Origin: a phage
NCBI GenBank assembly: GCA_037574385.1
Contig: GCA_037574385.1_4529.1
DNA length: 64,000 nt
Strand: one strand, 5' to 3'
Shown piece by piece: positions 9,327 through 62,793 of this stretch; the first letter of the stretch is position 1; each line of letters begins with the position of its first letter. Below the pieces are notes generated by a model. That model was not told the origin of the DNA. It did not search any database and worked only from the letters and a program-made list of their open reading frames with translations. Both the position numbers and the translations under genes were made by a program.

Positions 9327-10318
9327 TATTGAACCTTATTAATATAAGTTAACAGCTCTTTAGTTTGTTCCCAACTGATGCACGCATCGGTAACGGAAAC
9401 GCCATAGGACATATTATCAGAAATTTTTTGATTTCCTTCATGTAGGAACGATTCTATCATAATTCCTTTGACCAAATCATTAGCTGCTAAATTTTTACCA
9501 ATACCAATTTGATTGCTATAATGCCCATCAGCGTTTGCATGGCTACAGTCAACCATCACATAATGATTCAGACCTACTGCCCTTGCTTTGTTAGAAGCTT
9601 CTTGAATATCAGAAGAATGATAGTTCGGGCCGTTGGTCCCGCCACGCAATACGATATGCGTATTCTGATTACCTTCAGCTTCAACAATGCCTACAGTACC
9701 ATCGACGTCCATACCCATATACCGATGAGGCCAGGCGGCACTATACATCGCGTCTGTAGCTACTTTAATAGAACCATTGGTTGCGTTCTTAAAGCCTACG
9801 CACATCGGTAGACCTGAAGCAATTTCACGATGTGTCTGACTTTCAGTCGTACGGGCGCCAATAGCAACCCATGAGAAAATACCAGAAAGATACTTAATCG
9901 TGAATGGGTCTAATACTTCAGTTGCTAATGGAAGTCCCATACGTAGAAGTTTACGACACAATGTTCGTGCAACTATAAGACCGTGGTTCATATCAAAACT
10001 TCCGTCAAGATATGGATCATTTACAAGACCTTTCCAACCTACGGTAGTTCGAGGCTTTTCAAAATAAACGCGCATCACTAACAGAACATTAGGAAGACGA
10101 GTTTGAAGTTCAGCCAGACGTTTGCCGTATTCAACAGCAGCAATAGGGTCATGAATTGAACAAGGACCTACAACAATAAGTTTGCGTGGGTCTTCACCGT
10201 TCATAATCGAATTAACTTGTTCGCGATGAGAAGCCACTTGTGATGCGTAAGCTTCCGACAAAGGAATAATCTCAGCCAGTTCTTTTGGAGAAATAAGTTT
10301 TCCGACGACAGGTAACAT
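9326..10318 (-). CDS. 3-deoxy-D-arabino-heptulosonate-7-phosphate (DAHP) synthase, class I AroG-like
   Basis: 330 aa; long colinear matches to E. coli AroG: VVGPCSIHDP, VMRVYFEKPRTTVGWKGLVNDP, IGARTTESQTHRE, GFKNATNGSIKVA, ESFLHEGNQ, ITDACI. Confidence 0.8.
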   Translation of the reverse strand: MLPVVGKLISPKELAEIIPLSEAYASQVASHREQVNSIMNGEDPRKLIVVGPCSIHDPIAAVEYGKRLAELQTRLPNVLLVMRVYFEKPRTTVGWKGLVNDPYLDGSFDMNHGLIVARTLCRKLLRMGLPLATEVLDPFTIKYLSGIFSWVAIGARTTESQTHREIASGLPMCVGFKNATNGSIKVATDAMYSAAWPHRYMGMDVDGTVGIVEAEGNQNTHIVLRGGTNGPNYHSSDIQEASNKARAVGLNHYVMVDCSHANADGHYSNQIGIGKNLAANDLVKGIMIESFLHEGNQKISDNMSYGVSVTDACISWEQTKELLTYINKVQ

Positions 10319-10438
10319 AACAATCCTTAGGAGATATAAACAGATTCTGATTCAACAATACCTTTAACCGGATTAGACAGGTTAAGTTGGTAGTGCTCAG
10401 ATTTATGACCATTCTCGATAGTAATGAGATAGCTCTCA

Positions 10439-15881: not shown

Positions 15882-17057
15882 TTAGAAATATTTTTTGTAT
15901 GAATTGATTACATTTTGGTCTACATCATTATCAATTTGTGCAACAAGATAAGAACTGATTTCAACTTCCTGAGGAGCTGCTTGAACTAAATCAGAGTTCA
16001 GATATTCACGAATCCAAGGATACGGATGTTTGGTCGGAGCATCAGTAATTGGACACGGCAAACCACACTGTTTCATACGAGACACAGTCAAGTAATCAAC
16101 AAAAGCACACATACTCTGTGTATTGATACCTGGACATGTACCGTCTTTAAAGAGGTGCGCAGCCCATTCCTTCTCTTGACTATTTACTTCCATAAAAATG
16201 TCAACTGCTTCTTGTTCACATTCTTTAGCAATTTGAACCCACTCATCGCCGTCAGTACCAGATTGAAGTTGACGGATAATGTACTGAGTACCCTTAAGGT
16301 GGAGTTGTTCGTCACGAGCAATGAACTTCATAATCTTTGCATTGCCTTCCATAATTTCCATATTTTTATGGAAGTTGAAAGTACATGCAAATGATACGTA
16401 AAAACGAATAGCTTCTAAGGCGTTGATAACGTGCAAACAGAGATAAAGAGATTTCATTAGCTCACGCTTGGCGTTAAACATTATTTCTTCGTACATCTCA
16501 ATATCATTCTGCTGGCATGAGCCTAGTGAATACTCATAATTTTCCTTAGCATTTTCCCAATGGCGAGTCTTGACTAGAACATCATCATAATATTTACCTA
16601 TTGATTCAGCTCGTTTCATGATTGCTTCGTCTAATACAATTTCATCAAATACCTTAGATGGATCGGTATAAAGATTTCGCATAATATGAGTATATGAACG
16701 AGAGTGAATAGTTTCACTGAATGTCCATGTTGCAACCCATGTATCTAATGAAGGGTCAGAAATAAGTGCCATAAGTACCGCAGATGGGGCCCTGCCTTGT
16801 ATAGAATCTAATAATGATTGATACTTAAGATTGTTTGTAAAGATGTCCTGTTGGAACTGAGGAAGCTTATTGAACTGCGCAGAGTCCAACATCAAGTTTA
16901 CCTCTTCTGGGCGCCAGAAAAACGACAATTGCTTTTCAATAAGTTCTTCGAAAACTTTATGACGCTGAATATCATACCGTGCGAGGCCAAGACCAGAACC
17001 AAAGAACATCGGTTCATTCAAAACATCGACTTGTTGCGTGTTAAAAACTGTACTCAT
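15882..17057 (-). CDS. nrdB: Ribonucleotide reductase class Ia beta subunit (uninterrupted)
   Basis: 391 aa; contiguous ORF with no intron; position and size match T4 NrdB. Confidence 0.85.
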   Translation of the reverse strand: MSTVFNTQQVDVLNEPMFFGSGLGLARYDIQRHKVFEELIEKQLSFFWRPEEVNLMLDSAQFNKLPQFQQDIFTNNLKYQSLLDSIQGRAPSAVLMALISDPSLDTWVATWTFSETIHSRSYTHIMRNLYTDPSKVFDEIVLDEAIMKRAESIGKYYDDVLVKTRHWENAKENYEYSLGSCQQNDIEMYEEIMFNAKRELMKSLYLCLHVINALEAIRFYVSFACTFNFHKNMEIMEGNAKIMKFIARDEQLHLKGTQYIIRQLQSGTDGDEWVQIAKECEQEAVDIFMEVNSQEKEWAAHLFKDGTCPGINTQSMCAFVDYLTVSRMKQCGLPCPITDAPTKHPYPWIREYLNSDLVQAAPQEVEISSYLVAQIDNDVDQNVINSYKKYF

Positions 17058-17112
17058 TATATTTTCTCACTTAGTTATTAACTCATCCATGAGTAAATTA
17101 TAATCAAAAGTC

Positions 17113-19368
17113 TTAAAGCTTACAAGCAGAGCAATCTTCGGCTTTAGGTGTTTCTAATTCATAGTCATCTGTACCTGACCCATCACGAGTGTTATGATAG
17201 TAGAGATTTTTTCCGCCAAAGTACCAGAAGTAAAGCAGATCGTCAAGCATTACTGACATTGGCACTTTACCTTTCTCAAATACTGTCGGGTCATAGTAAG
17301 TATTAGCAGAAGCAGATTGGCACACCCATTTCAACATGATAGCAACTTGGGTCAAATAAGGTTTATTACCTTTCTTAGCAAGTTTCCACGCGTAGTCGTA
17401 AAGACTCATGTTATGTTCGATATTAGGAACAACCTGACGGAAGTTGCCTTCTTTAGATTCTTTAATACTTACAGGTCCACGAGGTGGTTCTATACCGTTT
17501 GTGCTATTTGAGACTTGACTGCTTGATTCGCATGGCATGAGAGCACTAAGTGTACTGTTACGAATTCCATGTTCTTTGAGTTCAGCTCGAAGTTCTTCCC
17601 AGTCACAGACGTAGTTCGGGGCTGCGATTTGGTCAATCTTTTTATTGTACCAGTCGATAGGTAATTCGCCTCTAGACCATTTAGTGTCTGAATAATACTC
17701 ACAAGGTCCTTTTTCTTTGGCGAGTTTGATTGAAGCTTTGATAAGGCCATATTGCAATCTCTCAAACAATTCATGAGTCAAATCGTTAGCGTCTTCATAT
17801 GAAGCAAAGTTAGAAGCTAACCATGCAGCATAGTTCGTCACACCAACACCGAGATTTCGACGCTTTTTAGCTTTTAAAGCTTCTGGAACCGGATAATCTT
17901 GATAGTCTAACAGGTTATCAAGTGCACGTACTTGTACTTCAGCAAGTTCATTAATTTTATCTTGGTCTTGCCAATCAAATTTATCTAATACAAAAGCAGA
18001 TAACGTGCATAAACCAATTTCAGCATCAGGACCATTCACATCATTAGTTGGAATAGCGATTTCACAGCATAAGTTACTCTGACGAATTGGAGCTTTTTCA
18101 CGAATAAACGGAGTGTAGTTATTCGTGTTATCAACAAACTGTGGATAAATTCGAGCAGTACCAGAACGTTCAGTCATGAACAATTCAAAGAGTTCTAGTG
18201 CTTTGATTCTTTTCTTTCTGATTGTTGGGTCTTTTTCAGCTTTCTCATAAAGCTCACGGAATTTATCTTGATCTTCAAAGAATGAGTAATATAGTTCGCC
18301 TGACATTTCGTGAGGGCTAAATAAAGTAATATAATCATTTTTACCAAGGCGTTCCATCATAAGGTCATTAATCTGAATTCCGTAGTCCATATGTCGAATA
18401 CGGTTTTCATCCACACCTTTGTTATTTTTCAGAACCAACAGGTTCTCTACTTCTAAGTGCCACATCGGATAATACGCCGTAGCAGCACCACCACGAATAC
18501 CACCTTGAGAACAAGATTTTACTGCAGTTTGGAAATGTTTCCAGAACGGAATAACACCCGTATGTCGAACTTCACCCATACCGATCTTAGAACCTTCTGC
18601 ACGAAGCATACCAACGTTGATACCGATACCAGCTCGTTTAGAAATATATTCAATAATTGATGCTGAAGTTTTGTTAATAGATTTTAATGAATCACCGGCT
18701 TCAATAACTACGCAACTAGAGAACTGGCGAGTTGGAGTACGAGCACCTGCCATAATTGGGGTTGGCAATGAAACTTGATGAGTAGAAACAGCATCATAAA
18801 AACGAATAATATGTTTCAAACGGTCATGAGTTTCGTCTTGATGTAAGGCCATACCAATAGCCATGATAGCAAACTGTGGAGTTTCATAAATCTTCCCAGT
18901 TGTTTTATCTTTAACTAGGTATTTTTCTTTAAGCTGCATAGCACCAGCATAAGTCAGATCAAAATCTCGCTCATGTCTAATCCGAGAATCAAGATAAATG
19001 ATTTCTTCTGCAGAATATCTAGACAACAACTCAGGATCGTATTTGCCTTCATTAACACAATACGAGATATGGTCGATAAAAGCAGGAGGTTCAAACTGTC
19101 CGTATACATCTTTACGAAGCGCAAACATTAATCCTTTAGCGGCAACATATTGATAATCAGGTTCTTCAACAGAAATCGAGTTAGCTGCAACTTTAATACA
19201 AATCTTCTGGATATCTTTAGTGCTCATCCCATCAACCAGATGAGTCTTAATTTCTTCATATAATTCGTATGGGTCTATTTGTGTTCCTTCACATTGCCAA
19301 GTTAATACTTGAATAATTTTCTGTGCATCAAAATTTTGGGATACCCCACTGCTCTTAGTTACTTGCAT
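17113..19368 (-). CDS. nrdA: Ribonucleotide reductase class Ia alpha subunit
   Basis: 751 aa; ATP-cone N-terminus, conserved catalytic core; position matches T4 NrdA. Confidence 0.9.
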   Translation of the reverse strand: MQVTKSSGVSQNFDAQKIIQVLTWQCEGTQIDPYELYEEIKTHLVDGMSTKDIQKICIKVAANSISVEEPDYQYVAAKGLMFALRKDVYGQFEPPAFIDHISYCVNEGKYDPELLSRYSAEEIIYLDSRIRHERDFDLTYAGAMQLKEKYLVKDKTTGKIYETPQFAIMAIGMALHQDETHDRLKHIIRFYDAVSTHQVSLPTPIMAGARTPTRQFSSCVVIEAGDSLKSINKTSASIIEYISKRAGIGINVGMLRAEGSKIGMGEVRHTGVIPFWKHFQTAVKSCSQGGIRGGAATAYYPMWHLEVENLLVLKNNKGVDENRIRHMDYGIQINDLMMERLGKNDYITLFSPHEMSGELYYSFFEDQDKFRELYEKAEKDPTIRKKRIKALELFELFMTERSGTARIYPQFVDNTNNYTPFIREKAPIRQSNLCCEIAIPTNDVNGPDAEIGLCTLSAFVLDKFDWQDQDKINELAEVQVRALDNLLDYQDYPVPEALKAKKRRNLGVGVTNYAAWLASNFASYEDANDLTHELFERLQYGLIKASIKLAKEKGPCEYYSDTKWSRGELPIDWYNKKIDQIAAPNYVCDWEELRAELKEHGIRNSTLSALMPCESSSQVSNSTNGIEPPRGPVSIKESKEGNFRQVVPNIEHNMSLYDYAWKLAKKGNKPYLTQVAIMLKWVCQSASANTYYDPTVFEKGKVPMSVMLDDLLYFWYFGGKNLYYHNTRDGSGTDDYELETPKAEDCSACKL

Positions 19369-30966: not shown

Positions 30967-33900
30967 ATGGCTACTTTAAAACAAATACAATTTAAAAGAA
31001 GCAAAACTGCAGGAGCACGTCCTGCCGCTTCAGTATTAGCCGAAGGTGAATTGGCTATAAACTTAAAAGACCGTGTACTTTTTACCAAAGATGACCAAGG
31101 AAATATTATTGATCTAGGTTTTGCTAAAGGCGGTAGTATTGACGGGAATGTTATTCATACAGGCAATTATAACCAAACCGGCGATTATACTTTAAATGGC
31201 GTCTTCACTCAGACTGGTAATTTTAATTTAACTGGTATTGCTCGAGTAACTCGTGATATTATCGCCGCTGGGCAGATTATGACTGAAGGCGGAGAACTTA
31301 TTACAAAAAGTTCAGGTACAGCACATGTTCGTTTTTTCGATAACAATAGCCGCGAACGTGGAATCATTTATGCCCCGGCTAATGATGGTTTAACTACACA
31401 AGTACTTAATATCAGGGTTCAAGACTACGCCGCTGGTGATGAAAGCACCTATGCATTTTCGGGCAGTGGACTATTTACTTCACCTGAAGTATCAGCATGG
31501 AAATCTATTTCGTCTCCACAAATTCTGACCGACAAAGTTATTACAAATGGGAAGAAGACAGGCGATTATGACATCTATTCATTATCAAATAACACTCCAT
31601 TGGCAGAAAGCGAAACGGCTATTAACCACCTCCGTGTTATGCGAAATGCTGTAGGAGCAGGTATTTTCCACGAAGTTAATGTTAATGACGGAATAACCTG
31701 GTATTCCGGAGATGGCTTAGACACTTATCTTTGGTCGTTTACCTGGTCCGGTGGATTGAAAGCCGGTCATTCTATCGCTGTAGGTCTTCCAGGCGGTCCA
31801 AAAGGATATTCTGAATTAGGAACGGCCTCAATTGTTCTTGGTGATAATGATACCGGATTTAAGTGGCATCAGGATGGATATTTCCATACAGTAAACAACG
31901 GAACAAAAACTTTCATTTACGGTCCTGCGGAAACACAAAGCCTTAGAAAAATGGTTATGGGTTATTCTCCAGATGGGCTTCTTATGACAACGCCACCGAC
32001 AGAAAACTATGCTTTGGCCACTGTTGTTACTTACCATGATAATAACGCATACGGCGACGGTCAAACTCTTTTAGGTTATTACCAAGGTGGTAATTATCAT
32101 CATTATTTCCGCGGTAAGGGTACTACAAACATTAATACTCACGGCGGTTTGTTGGTTACTCCTGGTAATATTGACGTTATTGGCGGTTCTGTTAATATAG
32201 ATGGTAGAAATAATTCTTCTACACTAATGTTTAGAGGCAACACAACAGGATACAGCTCGGTTGATAATATGGATATTAAAGTTTGGGGTAATACGTTTGT
32301 TGATCCAAGCGGAGGTACCCGTAAAAACATTATGGAAATTTCTGATGCAACTAGCTGGATGAGCTATATTCAAAGACTTACTACTGGCGAAGTAGAAATG
32401 AACGTTAATGGTTCATTTGAATCATCTGGTGTTACTGCTGGAGATAGAGGAGTTCACACAACAGGTGAAATTTCATCTGGAGCAGTGAATGCTCTTCGTA
32501 TTTGGAACGCAGATTATGGAGCCATTTTTAGACGTTCAGAAGGCAGTCTTCATATTATTCCAACTGCTTATGGTGAAGGTAAACACGGTGATATCGGTCC
32601 ACTTCGCCCGTTTAGTATGGCTTTAGATACTGGTAAAGTTACTATTCCAGATTTACAATCAAGTTACAATACGTTTGCTGCGAATGGCTATATTAAATTT
32701 GTTGGTCATGGAGCAGGCGCTGGTGGTTATGATATTCAATATGTTCAAGCAGCTCCTATTTTCCAGGAAATTGACGATGATGCTATAAACAAATATTATC
32801 CTATTGTTAAACAGAAGTTTTTAAACAGTAAAGCTGTTTGGTCTTTAGGTACTGAAATTAATTCGGGTACATTTGTTTTACACCATATCAAAGAAGATGG
32901 TTCACAAGGCCATACATCAAGATTTAACGCTGACGGTACAGTTAACTTCCCGGATAACGTTCAAGTCGGTGGCGGTGAAGCTACTATTGCTCGCAATGGT
33001 AATATCTGGTCTGATATCTGGAAAACGTTTACTTCTGCCGGTGATACTACAAATATTCGCGATGCTATTGCGACTCGTGTTTCGAAAGAAGGCGACACGA
33101 TGACCGGCAAATTGACTTTATCTGCAGGTAACGATGCCCTTGTTTTAACTGCAGGTGCTGGTGCTTCATCACATATCCGTAGTGATGTAGGTGGTACAGG
33201 TAATTGGTATATAGGCAAAGGCGGTGCCGACAATGGTCTAGGTTTTTACAGTTACATTACACAAGGCGGTGTATACATAACAAATACCGGTGAAATATCG
33301 CTTTCTCCTCAAGGACAAGGAACATTTAATTTTAATAGAGACCGCCTTTATATAAATGCTAGTCAATGGGTTGCACATAAATCTGGCGCTTGGGGCGACC
33401 AATGGGGCTTAGAAGCTCCTGTATTTGTGGATTTTGGCTACGTCGGTAATGATAGTTATTATCCTATTATCAAAGGAAAATCAGTTATTACTAATGAAGG
33501 ATTTGTATCAGGCGTTGATTTTGGTATGCGCCGTACCCCTAATATGTGGGCACAAGGTATTATCCGTGTAGGCAACCAGGAAAACGGTTCAGACCCACAA
33601 GCCATCTATGAATTCCACAGTAACGGTACTTTTTATGCCCCTAGCCTACTTAAGAGCAATAGAGTATCAGCAGGTGGCGGTGACCCCGTATGGGCCGGGC
33701 CATGTATTGTTCTTGGCGATAATGACACAGGTCTAGTTTGGGAAGCAGATGGTATTTTCAACGCATACGCAAACGGACAAGGCGTGTTTAGTTTTAGAGC
33801 TGGTCTCGCACAAACATTTGGTAACGTATCTTTAAACGTTAACGCAGGTATGTATGTTCGTGATAACATTGATGTTAACGACGTTTATATCCGTTCTGAT

Positions 33901-34215
33901 ATTCGCTGTAAGTCAGAAATTAAGCTTATTAAGAACGCTCAAGAGAAATCTAAACTCTTAGGCGGCTATACTTATCTGCTTAAAAACTCTGTTACAGACG
34001 AAGTTAAACCATCTGCAGGTTTAATTGCTCAGGAAGTTCAAGAAGTATTGCCTGAACTTGTTTCTGAAGATAAAGAGACCGGACTGCTTCGTTTGAACTA
34101 TAACGGTATTATTGGTTTAAATACTGCCACTATCAACGAGCATACTGACGAAATCAAGGAATTGAAATCTGAAATTGCTGAGTTGAAAGCATTAATTAAA
34201 TCATTGATAAAATAA
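30967..34215 (+). CDS. 37: Long tail fibre distal subunit gp37 with C-terminal intramolecular chaperone domain
   Basis: 1082 aa; C-terminus carries the SD-R-K auto-cleaving chaperone-type motif (SDIRCKSEIK ... GLIAQEVQEVLPELV ... coiled-coil tail). Confidence 0.8.
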   Translation: MATLKQIQFKRSKTAGARPAASVLAEGELAINLKDRVLFTKDDQGNIIDLGFAKGGSIDGNVIHTGNYNQTGDYTLNGVFTQTGNFNLTGIARVTRDIIAAGQIMTEGGELITKSSGTAHVRFFDNNSRERGIIYAPANDGLTTQVLNIRVQDYAAGDESTYAFSGSGLFTSPEVSAWKSISSPQILTDKVITNGKKTGDYDIYSLSNNTPLAESETAINHLRVMRNAVGAGIFHEVNVNDGITWYSGDGLDTYLWSFTWSGGLKAGHSIAVGLPGGPKGYSELGTASIVLGDNDTGFKWHQDGYFHTVNNGTKTFIYGPAETQSLRKMVMGYSPDGLLMTTPPTENYALATVVTYHDNNAYGDGQTLLGYYQGGNYHHYFRGKGTTNINTHGGLLVTPGNIDVIGGSVNIDGRNNSSTLMFRGNTTGYSSVDNMDIKVWGNTFVDPSGGTRKNIMEISDATSWMSYIQRLTTGEVEMNVNGSFESSGVTAGDRGVHTTGEISSGAVNALRIWNADYGAIFRRSEGSLHIIPTAYGEGKHGDIGPLRPFSMALDTGKVTIPDLQSSYNTFAANGYIKFVGHGAGAGGYDIQYVQAAPIFQEIDDDAINKYYPIVKQKFLNSKAVWSLGTEINSGTFVLHHIKEDGSQGHTSRFNADGTVNFPDNVQVGGGEATIARNGNIWSDIWKTFTSAGDTTNIRDAIATRVSKEGDTMTGKLTLSAGNDALVLTAGAGASSHIRSDVGGTGNWYIGKGGADNGLGFYSYITQGGVYITNTGEISLSPQGQGTFNFNRDRLYINASQWVAHKSGAWGDQWGLEAPVFVDFGYVGNDSYYPIIKGKSVITNEGFVSGVDFGMRRTPNMWAQGIIRVGNQENGSDPQAIYEFHSNGTFYAPSLLKSNRVSAGGGDPVWAGPCIVLGDNDTGLVWEADGIFNAYANGQGVFSFRAGLAQTFGNVSLNVNAGMYVRDNIDVNDVYIRSDIRCKSEIKLIKNAQEKSKLLGGYTYLLKNSVTDEVKPSAGLIAQEVQEVLPELVSEDKETGLLRLNYNGIIGLNTATINEHTDEIKELKSEIAELKALIKSLIK

Positions 34216-35058: not shown

Positions 35059-35730
35059 ATGGGAGGTAATATGGCAGCACCAAAAGTATCATTTTCGCCT
35101 AGTGATATTTTATTTGGGTTGCTAGACCGCATTTTCAAAGATAACGCCTCTGGAAATATTCTTATTTCCAGAGTTGCTGTTGTAGTTCTTTTGTTCCTAA
35201 TGGCACTAATATGGTACAAAGGGAGTATTTTTATGGATTATTACGTGAGGTCGAAATATGATACTTACACAGAAGTAATTCAAAAAGAAAGAAATACACG
35301 ATTTGAATCTGCGGCTTTAGAACAACTACAAATAGTCCACGTCACATCAAGGGCGGATTTTAGTTCGGTGTATTCTTTCAGACCTAAAAATCTAAATTAT
35401 TTCGTCGACCTTATTGCGTATGAAGGTAAGTTACCTAGCACAGTAACTGAAAAATCTATGGGAGGATTTCCTGTCGATAAAACTACAGCAGAATATTCGG
35501 TCCATTTAAGTGGACTTCACTTTACTTCTAAAACAGATTTTGCTTTCTTACCTACCAAATCAAAAACTCCGGAACTGGCATATATGTATAGTTGTCCTTA
35601 CTTCAATTTGGATAACATATATGCTGGAACTGTTTCTATGTATTGGTATAAGGGGTCGGATGTGTTAAATGAAGAACGCTTGGCAGCAATATGCAACCAA
35701 GCAGCAAGGATATTAGGGCGGGCTAAATAA
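35059..35730 (+). CDS. t: Holin T
   Basis: 223 aa; close match to T4 T holin (SFSPSDILFG.LDR.FKDNA.G, YMYSCPYFNLDNIYAGT, AARILGRAK). Confidence 0.9.
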   Translation: MGGNMAAPKVSFSPSDILFGLLDRIFKDNASGNILISRVAVVVLLFLMALIWYKGSIFMDYYVRSKYDTYTEVIQKERNTRFESAALEQLQIVHVTSRADFSSVYSFRPKNLNYFVDLIAYEGKLPSTVTEKSMGGFPVDKTTAEYSVHLSGLHFTSKTDFAFLPTKSKTPELAYMYSCPYFNLDNIYAGTVSMYWYKGSDVLNEERLAAICNQAARILGRAK

Positions 35731-58230: not shown

Positions 58231-58271
58231 AATAAACTCCTTTGTTGTTTAATTACAGGTGTATTTATAAC

Positions 58272-58553
58272 TTACAATTTAGCAGCTTGGACTGCTTTAT
58301 TGGCTTCAGTCATTTTAGCTAGATTTTCAGCAGTAGGATTAGCAATGTATTCGGCTGTAGCTTGAGCAAAAACATTATGAGTTTCGATTACATTTTTAGC
58401 ATTTTCAGTATTCATATCAATTTCTTGTTTAGATAAATTTTTTAGTTGATTGGCTAAGAGTTCTACAAAGATTTCAACATTAGCGTTTTCAATTATAGCA
58501 TTAATATGCTTCTTACGAGCTTTCTTAAGCTGACGTTTATTTAAACGAGACAT
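58272..58553 (-). CDS. Hypothetical basic/alpha-helical protein
   Basis: 93-aa ORF abutting gene 56. Confidence 0.45.
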   Translation of the reverse strand: MSRLNKRQLKKARKKHINAIIENANVEIFVELLANQLKNLSKQEIDMNTENAKNVIETHNVFAQATAEYIANPTAENLAKMTEANKAVQAAKL

Positions 58554-59089
58554 TAATAACCTCGGTCCTGACGAGCAAAGTTCTCGGCGTTTTTCAGGTA
58601 ATACAGTTTAAAGATTTCTTCTGCAGTCAGTCCAAGGCCATGGAACATATTCAGAACAAAGTGGAGGATATCAATCATTTCGAATTTAATTTCGAGCTGG
58701 TCTTCAGGAGACAACTCATCAATACGACGATTACGGAATTCAGCATGTTGTACTTTCCAAGGCTTCCATACACTGCTGGCAGCTTTTTCACCATTGCTCA
58801 TACCACCAAGTGAAGTCAGCAGTTCACGGAATTCATCATCAATATAATCTTTCTGATTACGCAGCCAATCAACAACATCGCCAGCAGTGGCCAATTCATC
58901 AGGATGTTTGTTATGTTCAGGCTTGTCATTTGCCAGACGAACCTGTAAAGATTTCTGCATATCAAGCATAACTTGCAGTGGGTCTTTATCTTCGTGAATC
59001 AGAGCATTAAAATAAGCTTCTTCTGCTTTATCAACACCAGAAATAAGTTGTGAACATTCGTTAAAGTGTGCCATTATTTTTCCTTTCAA
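58553..59089 (-). CDS. 56: dCTPase/dUTPase gp56 (MazG-like nucleotide pyrophosphohydrolase)
   Basis: 178 aa (T4 gp56 171 aa); MAHFNEC, DPLQVMLDMQ, DELATAGDVV, SPEDQLEIKFE, IFKLYYLKN, NFARQDRGY match T4 gp56. Confidence 0.85.
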   Translation of the reverse strand: MKGKIMAHFNECSQLISGVDKAEEAYFNALIHEDKDPLQVMLDMQKSLQVRLANDKPEHNKHPDELATAGDVVDWLRNQKDYIDDEFRELLTSLGGMSNGEKAASSVWKPWKVQHAEFRNRRIDELSPEDQLEIKFEMIDILHFVLNMFHGLGLTAEEIFKLYYLKNAENFARQDRGY

Positions 59090-59163
59090 TTCAGTAATAA
59101 GTGAGTTAATTCTAACATTAATTTTATAAAGCGTAATAAATAATAGGTAACTAAGGAGATATT

Positions 59164-59361
59164 ATGTTTAAACTTCCATCGTTAATCAACGCTATTAAAG
59201 GCAATAAAAAGAAAACTGCTATCGCTGCAATAGTTGTAGGCGGCATTATTTCATGGAACTTCGGGATTGCACCATTGTTAGTTGCCCATGGTGTTATAGT
59301 TCCTTCTGTTCCATTGGATACTGTAGTTGATTTGGCCTTTGCTATTATAGGGCTTGTTTAA
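59164..59361 (+). CDS. Small membrane protein (65 aa), + strand
   Basis: Strong SD AAGGAGAT 5 nt before ATG; two hydrophobic segments; convergent with and 4-nt overlapping the gene 61 stop; occupies the 56-61 interval where T-even phages carry dam. Confidence 0.5.
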   Translation: MFKLPSLINAIKGNKKKTAIAAIVVGGIISWNFGIAPLLVAHGVIVPSVPLDTVVDLAFAIIGLV

Positions 59362-60380
59362 ATCTTCGAATAACGAGATAATCTCATTTTAGCATGCAAC
59401 CCACTTGAAATATTCTGTTTCATATATTCTAAAATTTCTTGTGGTGTTGCATTTTCTTTCATTACCATATCATTCACATCCTTTGATCTCCATGGAGCTC
59501 TATCCCAGAACATAACACGTTCGCCTGCATCTACTAATCGCTTCATACGAGCTATAGTATCCGGATGCCTAGGTTCATTATCCATTACCCATACCCGACG
59601 TTCTTTAAATGGTACCACATCTAAATCTATTGAGCCGCCTGTAATAGCGATTGCATTGGGTATGAATAAACTATCAATAGGGCCTTCCATTACCCAGACG
59701 TCTCCTTCCTTAACACGTTCAACACCATAAATTTTTGTTGCAGACTCAAACGCTTTAATAGTGATATATTTCTGAGGAGCATCTTTACGAAGTGCACGTC
59801 CTTGGAATGACTCGGCCTTCCCGTCTTTATTAAAAATAGGAATCACTAAACGTGGTTCAGGAATCTCTTTCTTATACGTACCAGGTTGAATTTTGTTAAC
59901 CAATTTAGGCCATTCTAATGTGAACCATAATCTGTTCCACGATTCTTTAGGAATACACCGAGACTTAACATATTTCACAATAGGATGCTCTTCAGGCAGC
60001 TTGTCCAGACGAGAACAAGACGGCAAAGAATTTATAGTCTTTTTCTCCGGTTCTGGTTTATGTTCAGGAACCTTTTCAATCTTTGGTTCCATTCTAGCTT
60101 TTTCTTTACGAACTTCCATTAGATATTCACGATAAAGATCTTCGTCATACTCTTTTAAGTATCCGGAAATTGTATTATGATATTGACAGTTATAGCAATG
60201 CACATTACCTGGAGTACCGCCATAATACCATCCGCGAGCTTTCATTGCATCTGTCTGAGAGTCGCCACAAACTGGACAACGAAACGTTAATTTAAATGTG
60301 CTTGAATTATTGATTTGTCTAAAACGAGGTAGGTGAGAAAACGCACGATAAGCAAATTCATTATCTATCCATTCAGCCAT
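59358..60380 (-). CDS. 61: DNA primase gp61
   Basis: 340 aa (T4 gp61 342 aa); N-terminal zinc ribbon CPVCGDS...CYNCQYH; Toprim-like core. Confidence 0.85.
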   Translation of the reverse strand: MAEWIDNEFAYRAFSHLPRFRQINNSSTFKLTFRCPVCGDSQTDAMKARGWYYGGTPGNVHCYNCQYHNTISGYLKEYDEDLYREYLMEVRKEKARMEPKIEKVPEHKPEPEKKTINSLPSCSRLDKLPEEHPIVKYVKSRCIPKESWNRLWFTLEWPKLVNKIQPGTYKKEIPEPRLVIPIFNKDGKAESFQGRALRKDAPQKYITIKAFESATKIYGVERVKEGDVWVMEGPIDSLFIPNAIAITGGSIDLDVVPFKERRVWVMDNEPRHPDTIARMKRLVDAGERVMFWDRAPWRSKDVNDMVMKENATPQEILEYMKQNISSGLHAKMRLSRYSKI

Positions 60381-60419
60381 AGTATTCTCCAGAGGCCTTA
60401 AATTAATAAGGCCATCATA

Positions 60420-60914
60420 TCACAACTTATTGATATTTACTTTAATTCGCTTTCTTTTCTTGGAAGGAATTTGTTCTGGACCTTTATTTACGACTGCACC
60501 TGTAGTTGTTCCTGATGCAATAGCTTGAGGACTGCCACCTGAATCACCAGCCACCATATCCTCAAATAAAGGGAGTTCTTTAAATATTTCTTTCTGCTGT
60601 TCTTCTGTAATGTTATAGCGGGATGCTACAGCACTCCAGGCAGACATCATTGAGGCCATTCCATTAAGACCCGGAACAGTGCTCATCATTCGCTTCATTG
60701 AACGAACTGAAGCATGAAAAGGTGTATAAGCCGCTTTCTCTTCAGGAGTGGAAGGACGTTTAAGAACACTTCCACGTTCGTCGATGATTTTGGCTTCATA
60801 CGCTTTCCATTCGGTAAAAGGTTTTTGCATTAGACGAATAAACTTATATGCATAAACTGAATCTATTGCAGTGTTAATAATACCCATAGGTACCTCCTGA
60901 GTATATTTAATCAA
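60420..60914 (-). CDS. Hypothetical protein (61.1 position)
   Basis: 164-aa ORF downstream of primase. Confidence 0.5.
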   Translation of the reverse strand: MIKYTQEVPMGIINTAIDSVYAYKFIRLMQKPFTEWKAYEAKIIDERGSVLKRPSTPEEKAAYTPFHASVRSMKRMMSTVPGLNGMASMMSAWSAVASRYNITEEQQKEIFKELPLFEDMVAGDSGGSPQAIASGTTTGAVVNKGPEQIPSKKRKRIKVNINKL

Positions 60915-61105: not shown

Positions 61106-61765
61106 TTAACCTCGATTCATAAATGCATTAAATATTTGGTCATCAACAGAAATTTCTAATTCGACTTCAATTGCTTCAGCCTTTTCTTCAGGTGGTAATT
61201 CGTATCCACACACTACAATTTTTTCATCGATATCAAAATATACAGAAGCAATATGATTAATGTTATTTTCAGTTAAGTCTAAATCAACATCAACATCTTT
61301 TTGACCTACACTTAAAGGATAACTAATACGGGTTATTTTATTATCTTTAACAAAGAGTCCACCAACATACTCTGTACTACGTTTGAAGTTTACACGTTTC
61401 CGAATTGAAAGATATGATGCATCTTTACCGTGAGCTCGGCTCATAGGACATAATGAATAACTAGAATAAGAGATATCAAATCCTACGCCTTCAACATGTG
61501 CCAGAGTATCATGAGTAAACCAATTATAGTCGTATGCCAAATCCATTAAATTATAATATGTGAACGGAACTGGATTAACGTCATACGTTGTACCTTTAAA
61601 ATCTGCCCAGGCAACGATTTCGTTATCTTTAACAATTACAAAAATTACACCAATATGGTATCCGTTATTATTTTCATTCGGCGTTATATTATAACATTGT
61701 GCATTAGGAAATTTACCATATTTAAATGGCGCGTTTTTGTGCATATAATAAATCATATTATTCAC
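61106..61765 (-). CDS. Hypothetical protein
   Basis: 219-aa ORF. Confidence 0.5.
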   Translation of the reverse strand: MNNMIYYMHKNAPFKYGKFPNAQCYNITPNENNNGYHIGVIFVIVKDNEIVAWADFKGTTYDVNPVPFTYYNLMDLAYDYNWFTHDTLAHVEGVGFDISYSSYSLCPMSRAHGKDASYLSIRKRVNFKRSTEYVGGLFVKDNKITRISYPLSVGQKDVDVDLDLTENNINHIASVYFDIDEKIVVCGYELPPEEKAEAIEVELEISVDDQIFNAFMNRG

Positions 61766-62051
61766 CTGTGATTTCGGTTACGATATCTTTGTTATCGAAA
61801 TTAGGGTCACAATACAAAACATAGTTGTACTGCATGATACCGCCAGACTTAAGTTGTTCAACAACTTTATTAACCATATTAGGACGGTCTCGTTTAGTGA
61901 TGTTCATGATATCAGAGAAGATTTGTTGTTCAACATCTTCTTGATTTGCAGTCATTGACCACTCACAGAGGTCTTTATCATAACCTGCTGTAACTGGAGC
62001 TGGTGCACATGATACTGCAAGTAAGATTGCTGCCAATGATAACTTTTTCAT
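61758..62051 (-). CDS. sp: Spackle periplasmic protein (gp5 lysozyme inhibitor, superinfection exclusion)
   Basis: 97 aa, same as T4 Sp; signal peptide; AGYDKDLCEWSMTA, DIMNI.KRDRP, LKSGG.MQYNYVLYCD match T4 Sp. Confidence 0.7.
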   Translation of the reverse strand: MKKLSLAAILLAVSCAPAPVTAGYDKDLCEWSMTANQEDVEQQIFSDIMNITKRDRPNMVNKVVEQLKSGGIMQYNYVLYCDPNFDNKDIVTEITGE

Positions 62052-62114
62052 TTTAACTCCTTAGTTGATTTGATAGGACTACTATACTATAGTCCATCTA
62101 TAATGTAAACAAGT

Positions 62115-62363
62115 TTATTCTTTTTCGCGAATAATAATTACTTGTTGAGGCTGCTGAGCAGATTTCTTTTCGGCAACGATAGACCAAATTAAAGTTCCAA
62201 TCCAACCAACCATCGTCCAGTTAAAGAGCAAAGATACAAAGAAGATTGCTGTTGTGCTTTTTGTGCCACGAATAAGTGCGATTACCCAAGGCAACATGTA
62301 AATGATGATTGAACCAATACCTGCGATTAAAACTGCTACTGAACTAGCTACGAATAATTCCAT
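62115..62363 (-). CDS. Two-TM inner-membrane protein
   Basis: 82 aa with two long hydrophobic segments and charged C-terminus; directly next to sp. Confidence 0.5.
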   Translation of the reverse strand: MELFVASSVAVLIAGIGSIIIYMLPWVIALIRGTKSTTAIFFVSLLFNWTMVGWIGTLIWSIVAEKKSAQQPQQVIIIREKE

Positions 62364-62424
62364 GTTAATTTCCTCTTGATTTGTTATGTTTATAGTATCT
62401 TGTTTTAACTTTGGCGTAAACCAA

Positions 62425-62793
62425 TTAATTAAATTTGTTTAAACGTTCAATACACTGGACGTAGTTATTCGCGATTTGTTTCTGGGTAGGCTCTTTACCA
62501 GTTGTTTCAATATAGCGAATGAATGCGATTTCAGTAGCCTGTAAGCAATGTTCTTTAACGCGTTGTTCTTTTGTCAATGCTACAGTATCAGAATCACGAT
62601 AACGTTGAGCATGGGCATCAGCTTGAATCATTCGATTACCTACAGTAACCGGGTCTTCCACTTCAACTTTAGGTTGGTTGTACTGTTTAACATTCGGGTT
62701 ATAAATCAATTGGCCAACATTATTAGGGATAAAGCCGTGAGCACCACATCCAGTTAATCCGAATACCATTGCTAAAGCGATTAATTTTTTCAT
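62425..62793 (-). CDS. Putative lipoprotein
   Basis: 122 aa; signal peptide with lipobox LTGC. Confidence 0.55.
   Translation of the reverse strand: MKKLIALAMVFGLTGCGAHGFIPNNVGQLIYNPNVKQYNQPKVEVEDPVTVGNRMIQADAHAQRYRDSDTVALTKEQRVKEHCLQATEIAFIRYIETTGKEPTQKQIANNYVQCIERLNKFN

Follow-up and report, generated by a model that had tools for sequence, protein, structure and literature searches.

The 65-codon ORF that lies between genes 56 and 61 of the window (the whole 64-kb stretch of phage DNA that was analysed) is, judged from sequence comparison, the Mosigvirus ortholog of RB69ORF029w, a hypothetical family already catalogued without characterisation. The data as a whole are best explained, with a probability that we put at about 0.7, by a conserved RB69ORF029w gene expressed as a weak late unit, whose product would be a bitopic membrane protein with a role at the envelope. 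As an annotated hypothetical family the gene is already known, and the new points are minor ones: its absence from the T4 reference, a conserved late-type box in front of it, and a hairpin embedded in the primase gene that tracks with the ORF.

Genomic context of the ORF

The features of the locus that are needed to follow the analysis are these:

59164..59361, + strand: 65-aa ORF, ortholog of RB69ORF029w (PHROG 2024), with its ATG at 59164 and its TAA at 59359-59361
59152..59159, + strand: Shine-Dalgarno sequence (SD) TAAGGAGA, with 5 nt from GGAG to the ATG of the 65-aa ORF
59358..60380, - strand: gene 61, DNA primase of 340 aa (PHROG 47, E 1e-101; ORF list; annotation in relatives)
58553..59074, - strand: gene 56, dCTPase/dUTPase of 173 aa from the ATG at 59074 (start codon per RB69 annotation)

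The translation of the 65 codons is MFKLPSLINAIKGNKKKTAIAAIVVGGIISWNFGIAPLLVAHGVIVPSVPLDTVVDLAFAIIGLV. The ORF is convergent with gene 61, the two stop codons overlapping by 4 nt (TTAA) within the palindrome TTTAAA, and divergent from gene 56, with 89 nt between the two starts. The first-pass annotation of this DNA had described a solitary + strand gene, with a good SD, that encodes a small hydrophobic protein and overlaps the end of the primase gene by 4 nt, and this description was borne out. The annotated neighbours of the ORF in close relatives are all on the - strand, and in the complete RB69 annotation it is the sole + strand CDS among the first 162 genes (80.6 kb). The overlap follows from the coordinates (59361 against 59358). 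Concerning the SD, AGGAG or GGAGG is found at an unchanged distance from the ATG in all 11 T4-like lineages compared.

Phage affiliation and family identity

The 2.1-kb query 58400-60500 was 98.3% identical to Shigella phage ESh27 (Mosigvirus) and 96-97% identical to many other Mosigvirus genomes, and the 64-kb window aligns to positions 125018-167560 and 1-21101 of RB69 at ~94-98% identity. These identities place the window in Mosigvirus, as an RB69-like phage. One tail-fibre segment of the window diverges from RB69 (78%).

The ORF product is 96.9% identical to RB69ORF029w (NP_861719.1). Against PHROG 2024, to which no function is assigned, the match has an E-value of 2.1e-27 and pairs residues 1-65 with all 65 profile positions, and the score against our own HMM of the family is 98 bits. 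Mosigvirus records carry the protein under the labels 'hypothetical protein', 'putative transmembrane protein' or RB69ORF029w. Nolan et al. 2006 (PMC1524935) listed RB69ORF029w among the 'novel ORFs' without a T4 match, and a literature search with the names RB69ORF029w and ORF030w found no paper besides one table entry in that work. A further literature search on T4 Ribo-seq, unannotated ORFs and small membrane proteins found nothing relevant.

The window ORF shares its strand, its position, the 4-nt overlap with gene 61 and the full-length profile match with RB69ORF029w, RB32ORF030w and the T2 protein AYD82629.1. Between RB69ORF029w and the window ORF there is no difference of substance, and the family has no assigned function.

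A fixed gene beside the primase gene and its relation to dam

A tblastn search with the 65-aa protein matched 859 phage records. The orthologs of T2 and T4 are ~55% identical to the ORF, lie on the + strand and overlap the end of the primase gene. In T2 the annotated order is 56-dam-T2_31-ORF(+)-61, and the ORF is labelled 'similar to RB69ORF029w; RB32030w'. In the T4 record NC_000866.4, dam (16846-17625) and gene 61 (17935-18963) are separated by a gap of 310 nt without an annotated feature. This gap encodes MVQKLMALVNAIKGNKKRIAFTISTMVGILLWNFILSPVAIAHGVNIPVVTLDTFVDLAFALVGLI at 17738-17938 on the + strand, with a 4-nt stop overlap with gene 61, and this T4 member of the family lacks annotation in both NC_000866.4 and KJ477684.

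The arrangement extends beyond the closest relatives. A small + strand ORF is located just 3' of the primase gene in Gaprivervirus (SP18, UPEC07, TH15), Moonvirus (KM16) and Jiaodavirus (KpV477, KP1079), and the same tail-to-tail placement was found in three T4-like metagenomic contigs. Five named genera (Mosigvirus, Tequatrovirus, Gaprivervirus, Moonvirus and Jiaodavirus) thus keep the ORF beside the 3' end of the primase gene, and the 4-nt stop overlap is retained in Tequatrovirus, Mosigvirus, Moonvirus and the three metagenomic contigs. The family HMM detected a single copy each in the window and in the complete RB69 genome; in Gaprivervirus, where ~110 nt separate the primase gene from the first copy, it detected a tandem second one, intact in TH15 and truncated in SP18. 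No match to this HMM was found in the 4-kb primase loci of Karamvirus, Slopekvirus, Krischvirus, an Acinetobacter T4-like phage and the Aeromonas Biquartavirus.

The far side of the ORF varies, and can be occupied by gene 56 directly, dam, T2_31, HNH or other homing endonucleases, or other ORFs. In KpV477 two hypothetical ORFs are followed by a DNA methyltransferase, and in the metagenomic contigs small unnamed ORFs are found at this position.

Regarding dam, the first-pass annotation had stated that the 56-61 interval contains none, which is right for the window: the 89 nt between the start of gene 56 and the start of the ORF hold no methyltransferase, and tblastn with T4 Dam against the 64-kb window found no homolog (best E 0.64). 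It had also allowed for a simple relocation of dam to another place. This is not what was found, since T4 Dam likewise has no homolog in the complete RB69 genome (best E 0.16), the only Mosigvirus genome searched in full for dam, and the RB69 annotation lists no methyltransferase over the whole genome.

That annotation had the ORF inserted where T-even phages carry dam, a proposal that can be read as a foreign small gene having entered the dam locus of a T-even genome and replaced dam. The lack of dam between genes 56 and 61 and anywhere in RB69 is in agreement with this proposal, and so is the orientation of the ORF, opposite to all its neighbours. However, the gene order of T2 and T4 refutes it, as both phages carry the ortholog alongside dam and the ORF is consequently no replacement for it. 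When the 56-61 interval is compared among T2, T4 and RB69, the absence of dam from RB69 stands, but the ORF is not limited to phages without dam. T4 Dam, which shares the interval with the ORF in T4 and T2, is moreover an unrelated 259-aa cytoplasmic enzyme encoded on the - strand.

The fixed position of the ORF in five genera also speaks against replacement, as does the lower number of records with dam. T4-type Dam was found at an identity of at least 90% in ~180 records, versus ~690 with a near-full-length match to the ORF, which is a rough comparison given the differing E-value cut-offs of the two tblastn searches. These numbers make dam look like the variable element. A replacement of dam is very improbable; being wrong in this respect, the finding as originally posed does not matter. 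Judged from the gene orders compared, it is the ORF that stays in place, with dam and other cassettes as movable cargo between it and gene 56 in some lineages.

Selection on the coding sequence

Synonymous and nonsynonymous changes were counted by the Nei-Gojobori method on a codon alignment of 11 ORF sequences. Within genera, dN/dS was between 0.09 and 0.33 in six of the seven comparisons, and 0.57 in the remaining one (UPEC07 vs SP18). Between genera the synonymous sites are saturated (pS ~0.7), with pN of 0.33-0.5.

Across 22 members of the family, a length of 57-70 aa, the start, the SD and the motif are retained down to 22-35% identity. P37 is invariant in these members, and W31, N32, G43 and P47 are each conserved in at least 90% of them. 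The family motif, W-N-[FY]..x3-P..x5-G..x3-P, is present in the window ORF as W31, N32, P37, G43 and P47. Moreover, a profile search of 1.84 billion representative proteins returned only 13 clusters, all of them of 45-70 aa.

AT-rich phage DNA yields many spurious ORFs of this size, and the spacer contains a predicted middle promoter, so that the ORF could have been a chance reading frame in a regulatory spacer that holds nothing more than the promoter of gene 56 and the 3' end of the primase gene. Against a chance ORF stand the dN/dS values well below 1 with saturated synonymous sites, the preservation of length, start, SD and motif between such distant members, and a profile search that returns only proteins of similar size; the probability left to it is practically negligible. 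The substitution pattern identifies the ORF family as a real small protein-coding gene under purifying selection. A conserved, selected and oddly oriented small gene is absent from the T4 reference annotation, which argues for adding it to the T4 records.

Predicted membrane protein

The structure predicted by AlphaFold2 with the family alignment (mean pLDDT 78.5) has helices at residues 4-13, 15-41 and 51-62 and a loop at 42-50. The transmembrane (TM) segment covers about residues 18-41 and contains W31-N32 and P37; it is followed by a loop (H42-G43...P47) and by the short C-terminal helix 51-62. Among family members the charge of the N-terminal flank is +2 to +5 and that of the C-terminal flank 0 to -2, the last 24 aa being hydrophobic with a net charge of 0 to -2. 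For RB69ORF029w, a TM segment at 21-41 and no signal peptide had been predicted (Nolan 2006, Additional file 2; PMC1524935). The claim that the gene encodes a small membrane protein, for which a TM prediction was the proposed check, is hence upheld at the level of prediction, with a single TM segment at ~18-41 according to AlphaFold2, the published 21-41 segment and the charge and hydropathy profile.

From these models the family very probably consists of bitopic inner-membrane proteins of 57-70 aa, with a basic N-terminus in the cytoplasm, one TM segment, and a C-terminus on the outside with ~24 periplasmic residues. The TM helix would carry the near-invariant Trp-Asn pair with the invariant Pro five residues further on, and the periplasmic tail would follow with the pattern G-x3-P-x3-(L)-(D/E) and a small hydrophobic helix. 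Residues such as Asn and Pro within a TM helix can mediate association between helices.

Predicted promoters and probable expression

Two promoter-like elements lie in the spacer between gene 56 and the ORF:

59135..59142, + strand: late-promoter-like box AATAAATA, a 7/8 match to T4 TATAAATA, 21 nt upstream of the ATG, with a predicted transcription start near 59148
59109..59133, - strand: MotA-type middle promoter for gene 56, read from the sequence as CGCTTTA (59133..59127), a 12-nt spacer and TAGAAT (59114..59109)

The two elements are placed back-to-back. The middle promoter corresponds to Pm:16038, predicted for RB69 with a score of 21.6 (Nolan et al. 2006, PMC1524935). In front of the ORF, no sigma-70-like promoter was predicted on the + strand, and no early or middle promoter was found on that strand either.

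Ten of the 11 T4-like lineages have (A/C/G)ATAAATA at a distance of 12-21 nt from the ATG, though their upstream flanks are non-homologous. The box is GATAAATA in T4 and T2, CATAAATA in Gaprivervirus, KP1079 and the three metagenomic contigs, AATAAATA in Mosigvirus and KpV477, and ATTAAATA in KM16; its first position is never T in any lineage. The box of KP1079 is at the short end, 12 nt, which would put the start of the predicted leader within the SD. Sequences of the form VATAAATA are depleted in the window, with 9 found versus 20 +/- 4.3 expected. By coordinate mapping, perfect TATAAATA-type boxes lie in front of the ORFs assigned as soc, t and genes 34 and 36, and CATAAATA in front of the one assigned as alt, which is a late gene.

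For RB69 and other phages, Nolan et al. (PMC1524935) describe the -13 position as 'either A or T', and AATAAATA accounts for 4 of their 31 RB69 late sites; the published list of RB69 late promoters has no site at the position of the ORF. For T4, a dRNA-seq preprint (10.1101/2024.04.04.588121) gives 150 phage start sites.

The ORF would be transcribed as its own unit from a weak late promoter of the gp55 type, (A/C/G)ATAAATA, and translated from a strong SD. Late expression with its own promoter and a strong SD, from an mRNA ended or stabilised at a hairpin just inside or before the primase gene, is on balance likely from these motifs. Other T4 late units embedded in early regions offer a parallel, for example soc, with TATAAATA upstream at 58262-58269 of the window (- strand), which like the ORF is a short late-type unit with its own box and SD among early genes. 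The two differ in that soc has a perfect box and the same direction as its neighbours, whereas the ORF has a 7/8 box and is the only opposite-strand gene in the region.

Possible functions at the envelope

Searches for a known function gave little. The ORF had no match in Pfam, NCBIfam or PADLOC, the PDB profile search returned only generic TM-helix matches to acetylcholine-receptor M4, and Foldseek against BFVD returned family members only. Rfam over 58400-60500 gave only a chance miRNA match inside gene 56.

Outside the T4-like phages, three family members occupy accessory positions. The first lies between tail-tip/endonuclease VII genes and an integrase, the second at a prophage end, and the third precedes, by 17 nt, a RelA/SpoT-like gene with a match to the PADLOC defence candidate PDC-S33. 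Two of these members were compared with PHROG 2024, and both match it (E ~6e-11).

The TM helix with its Asn and Pro would mediate association of the protein with itself or with a partner late in infection, and would in this way modulate an envelope process, e.g. lysis timing or the exclusion of incoming DNA. In view of the late-type box, a late role at the envelope or in lysis is favoured. That a late-made bitopic inner-membrane protein would act by TM-mediated association at the envelope is nevertheless a guess, offered tentatively, as the family resembles no characterised one. T4 biology would gain one further candidate late membrane protein, of which few are listed, and the experimental handle is clear and cheap: one late-type box, one SD and 65 codons.

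An exclusion-type role may be kept under consideration because of the accessory contexts described above and the nearby sp/imm/imm.1 cluster (61758-62793 in the window), 2.4 kb from the ORF. The protein would then be a superinfection-exclusion or defence membrane protein like Imm or the prophage Sie proteins, blocking the entry of DNA from a secondary phage. The members at prophage ends, the one near the RelA/SpoT-like gene, and the tandem paralog in Gaprivervirus TH15 are consistent with this role. The gene of T4 Imm itself (62115-62363 in the window, - strand) lies a few kb away; its product is a small protein of the inner membrane, and the Imm motif LPxxIxxI[KR]GxK is shared with the N-terminus of the Mosigvirus ORF in a local similarity of 20 aa. 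By our reading of the Imm sequence it would, unlike the ORF product, have two TM segments, and it would be expressed from an early promoter on the - strand.

Homology with Imm was rejected: the pairwise similarity is gone at the profile level, where hhalign of the family against the Imm of the window gave a probability of 0.1% and none of the 22 members matched PF14373. Exclusion in T4 is, furthermore, an early function, and the + strand upstream of the ORF has no early or middle promoter that we could find. As the family itself also has no PADLOC match, a superinfection-exclusion or defence function seems unlikely.

A holin, an antiholin or another lysis-timing protein would also be made late, oligomerise through a polar TM residue and alter permeability or the triggering of holin T. 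The ORF resembles the holins and antiholins (T4 T, RI and the small class II/III proteins) as a small membrane protein with probable late expression in which a polar TM residue could drive oligomerisation; it has the late-promoter-like box and the near-invariant Asn in the TM helix of a small bitopic protein. Homologs are named 'holin' or 'putative holin' in two database records, but these names are unsupported annotations, and a weak match to GTA_holin_3TM (E 0.03, 2 of 22 members) is far below the Pfam threshold.

In addition, holins typically end in a charged tail, whereas the C-terminus of the ORF product is hydrophobic and neutral to acidic, and the ORF does not adjoin endolysin e, holin t or the spanins. 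The position in RB69 is 16 kb for the ORF, versus 65.2 kb for e, 137 kb for pseT.2/pseT.3 and 159 kb for t, and in the window t is at 35059-35730; rI, rIII and the spanins are likewise elsewhere in the phage, with no lysis cassette around the ORF. A function in this class is therefore doubtful.

A type I toxin-antitoxin system was also considered and rejected. Ldr_toxin was matched at E 0.1 in only one of 22 members, no Rfam family was found in 58400-60500, and the overlapping partner is the protein-coding primase gene.

A predicted hairpin in the 3' region of gene 61

Downstream of the ORF, the + strand of the primase gene holds two further elements:

59394-59452, + strand: RNA hairpin with arms UGCAACCCAC and GUGGUGUUGCA, in the 3' coding region of the primase gene, ~35 nt downstream of the ORF stop
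59452-59460, + strand: U-rich stretch UUUUCUUUC, into which the hairpin runs

The 131-nt stretch of the + strand that contains the hairpin has a fold z of -2.97. The arms correspond to the codons for ATPQ and SGLH near the C-terminus of gp61, and hairpins formed from the same two codon blocks were found in T4, SP18, UPEC07, TH15 and the metagenomic contigs meta21 and meta22, and in weakened form in T2. KM16 has a hairpin in the same area in a different register. In Jiaodavirus there is no hairpin in the coding region, and an intergenic GC hairpin, AGGGGCUUUGGCCCCU, lies between the two stops. The hairpin is absent in Karamvirus, Slopekvirus, Krischvirus and the Acinetobacter and Aeromonas phages, all of which lack the ORF; the primase peptide is conserved despite this absence, e.g. 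GATPEQIMDYINNNIESGLMA in Karamvirus.

The fold was compared with those of synonymous recodings drawn from each phage's own primase codons. Nine of the lineages have the ORF or its tandem copy directly against the primase gene, and in eight of these the + strand fold was stabler than at least 95% of the recodings, with z of -1.9 to -3.3. For the six controls z was between +2.0 and -1.7. Several pairs of the hairpin are G-U on the + strand and hence A-C on the primase mRNA, and the + strand fold was stabler than that of the primase mRNA in six of eight lineages, the two stabilities being nearly equal in several. Covariation is weak and gives no proof of the hairpin, with 79% of cells paired in the T4 register and only 2 double changes, and RNAalifold found no consensus for the hairpin region, where the pairing register shifts between lineages. 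A simple terminator scan of 58400-60600 reported no terminator, the hairpin included. The hairpin loop is large and the U-tracts are poor outside Mosigvirus. These results are suggestive of a candidate 3' end or terminator of the + strand transcript.

The first-pass annotation had deduced antisense transcription across the 3' end of the primase gene from the convergent overlap. Such transcription is plausible and its extent is probably limited, as the antisense RNA into gene 61 would be short if the mRNA ends or is stabilised at the hairpin. The small transcript would end there, with the antisense reach into gene 61 confined to ~100 nt.

It could be argued that the main role of the locus is regulatory, with late antisense transcription into gene 61 shutting down primase expression and the peptide being secondary. 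The convergent 4-nt overlap, kept in several genera, and the lack of a canonical intrinsic terminator in the simple scan are compatible with such regulation. However, the protein sequence itself is under purifying selection, the two genes are separated by the GC hairpin in Jiaodavirus and by ~110 nt for the first copy of Gaprivervirus, and, in lineages with the ORF or its copy directly against the primase gene, a hairpin ~35 nt past the stop would limit read-through. A primarily regulatory role is thus improbable.

A more far-reaching version of the preferred reading would see a hidden late gene of the T4 group, encoding a new envelope-acting membrane protein for lysis timing or exclusion, in which the transcript stops at the hairpin and the ORF, the box and the hairpin form one conserved convergent module that also tunes late primase expression. 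We regard this version as quite speculative and unlikely to hold in full. The hairpin in the primase coding sequence, tracking with the presence of the ORF, is in any case a structural oddity that can be tested.

The small ORF family in T4 and beyond

The 310-nt gap between dam and gene 61 carries no feature of any kind in the T4 reference genome annotation. An ortholog of the small ORF, the predicted membrane protein gene that converges with gene 61 (DNA primase) in the window, was found there:

NC_000866.4 17738-17938 (2739-2939 in the T4 locus L006), also KJ477684.1 17733-17921; + strand; T4 ortholog of the small ORF

It encodes 66 aa and is preceded by GATAAATA 21 nt upstream, together with a strong SD. 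The gene is conserved, and the T4 reference annotation omits it.

In Gaprivervirus, a second, tandem paralog separates the first copy from the primase gene; it was undetected in UPEC07 of the same genus:

L029 (Escherichia virus TH15) about 2523-2941; - strand in the locus; tandem paralog, intact, 66 aa, with its own SD
L007 (SP18) 2185-2307; tandem paralog, truncated

The family is also represented beyond the T4-like phages (L018 129-308, L019 4001-4210 and L023 5001-5213). One of these members is followed after 17 nt by a RelA/SpoT-like gene matching PDC-S33, a candidate in PADLOC. Another has tail-tip/endonuclease VII genes on one side and an integrase on the other, and the third is at a prophage end, adjoining host genes.

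Regarding Imm, the N-terminus of the small ORF (window 59164-59223) shares a local 20-aa similarity with Imm residues 21-40 (62244-62303), with 9 of 20 positions identical, the Imm segment being LPxxIxxIRGxK; this likeness found no support at the profile level.

A hairpin inside gene 61

Within the coding region for the primase C-terminus, a hairpin was located:

59394-59460; + strand; hairpin inside gene 61

It was found in lineages whose primase gene directly adjoins the small ORF or a tandem copy of it, and it is missing from those lacking the small ORF, despite the conserved primase peptide there. In eight of the nine lineages with the ORF or tandem copy next to the primase gene, the hairpin is more stable than synonymous recodings.

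Promoters and late-type boxes

Gene 56 (dCTPase) has a near-consensus middle promoter, which stands back-to-back with the + strand late-promoter-like box of the small ORF:

59109-59133; - strand; MotA-type middle promoter of gene 56, CGCTTTA-12-TAGAAT

This is the published RB69 site Pm:16038 (PMC1524935). In T4, the corresponding place is occupied by P(E)17.40, the early promoter of dam.

Across the whole 64-kb window, VATAAATA is strongly depleted (9 observed against 20 +/- 4.3 expected; all 100 of 100 shuffles reached or exceeded the window count), and this scarcity suggests that stray late-promoter-like boxes are selected against. TATAAATA is at chance level (6 vs 7.3). Furthermore, another box was noted:

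2406-2413; - strand; CATAAATA box with SD, followed 26 nt downstream by a long ORF on the same strand

By coordinate mapping this ORF corresponds to alt in RB69, a late gene; a late gene is thus preceded by a box with a non-T first position.

Segments diverging from RB69

Between soc and gene 56 lies an ORF named soc.2 in some records:

58272-58553; - strand; 93-aa ORF, PHROG 5782 'virion structural protein'

The interval 58270-58550 does not align to RB69, where 193 nt of other sequence take its place; a small segment has been replaced here. Stretches 33108-34087 and 9329-10424 are also divergent: they comprise the tail-fibre tip/adhesin region, which can be aligned to RB69 only partially, at 78%, and about 1.1 kb, close to RB69 position 134.25 kb, for which RB69 has nothing equivalent.
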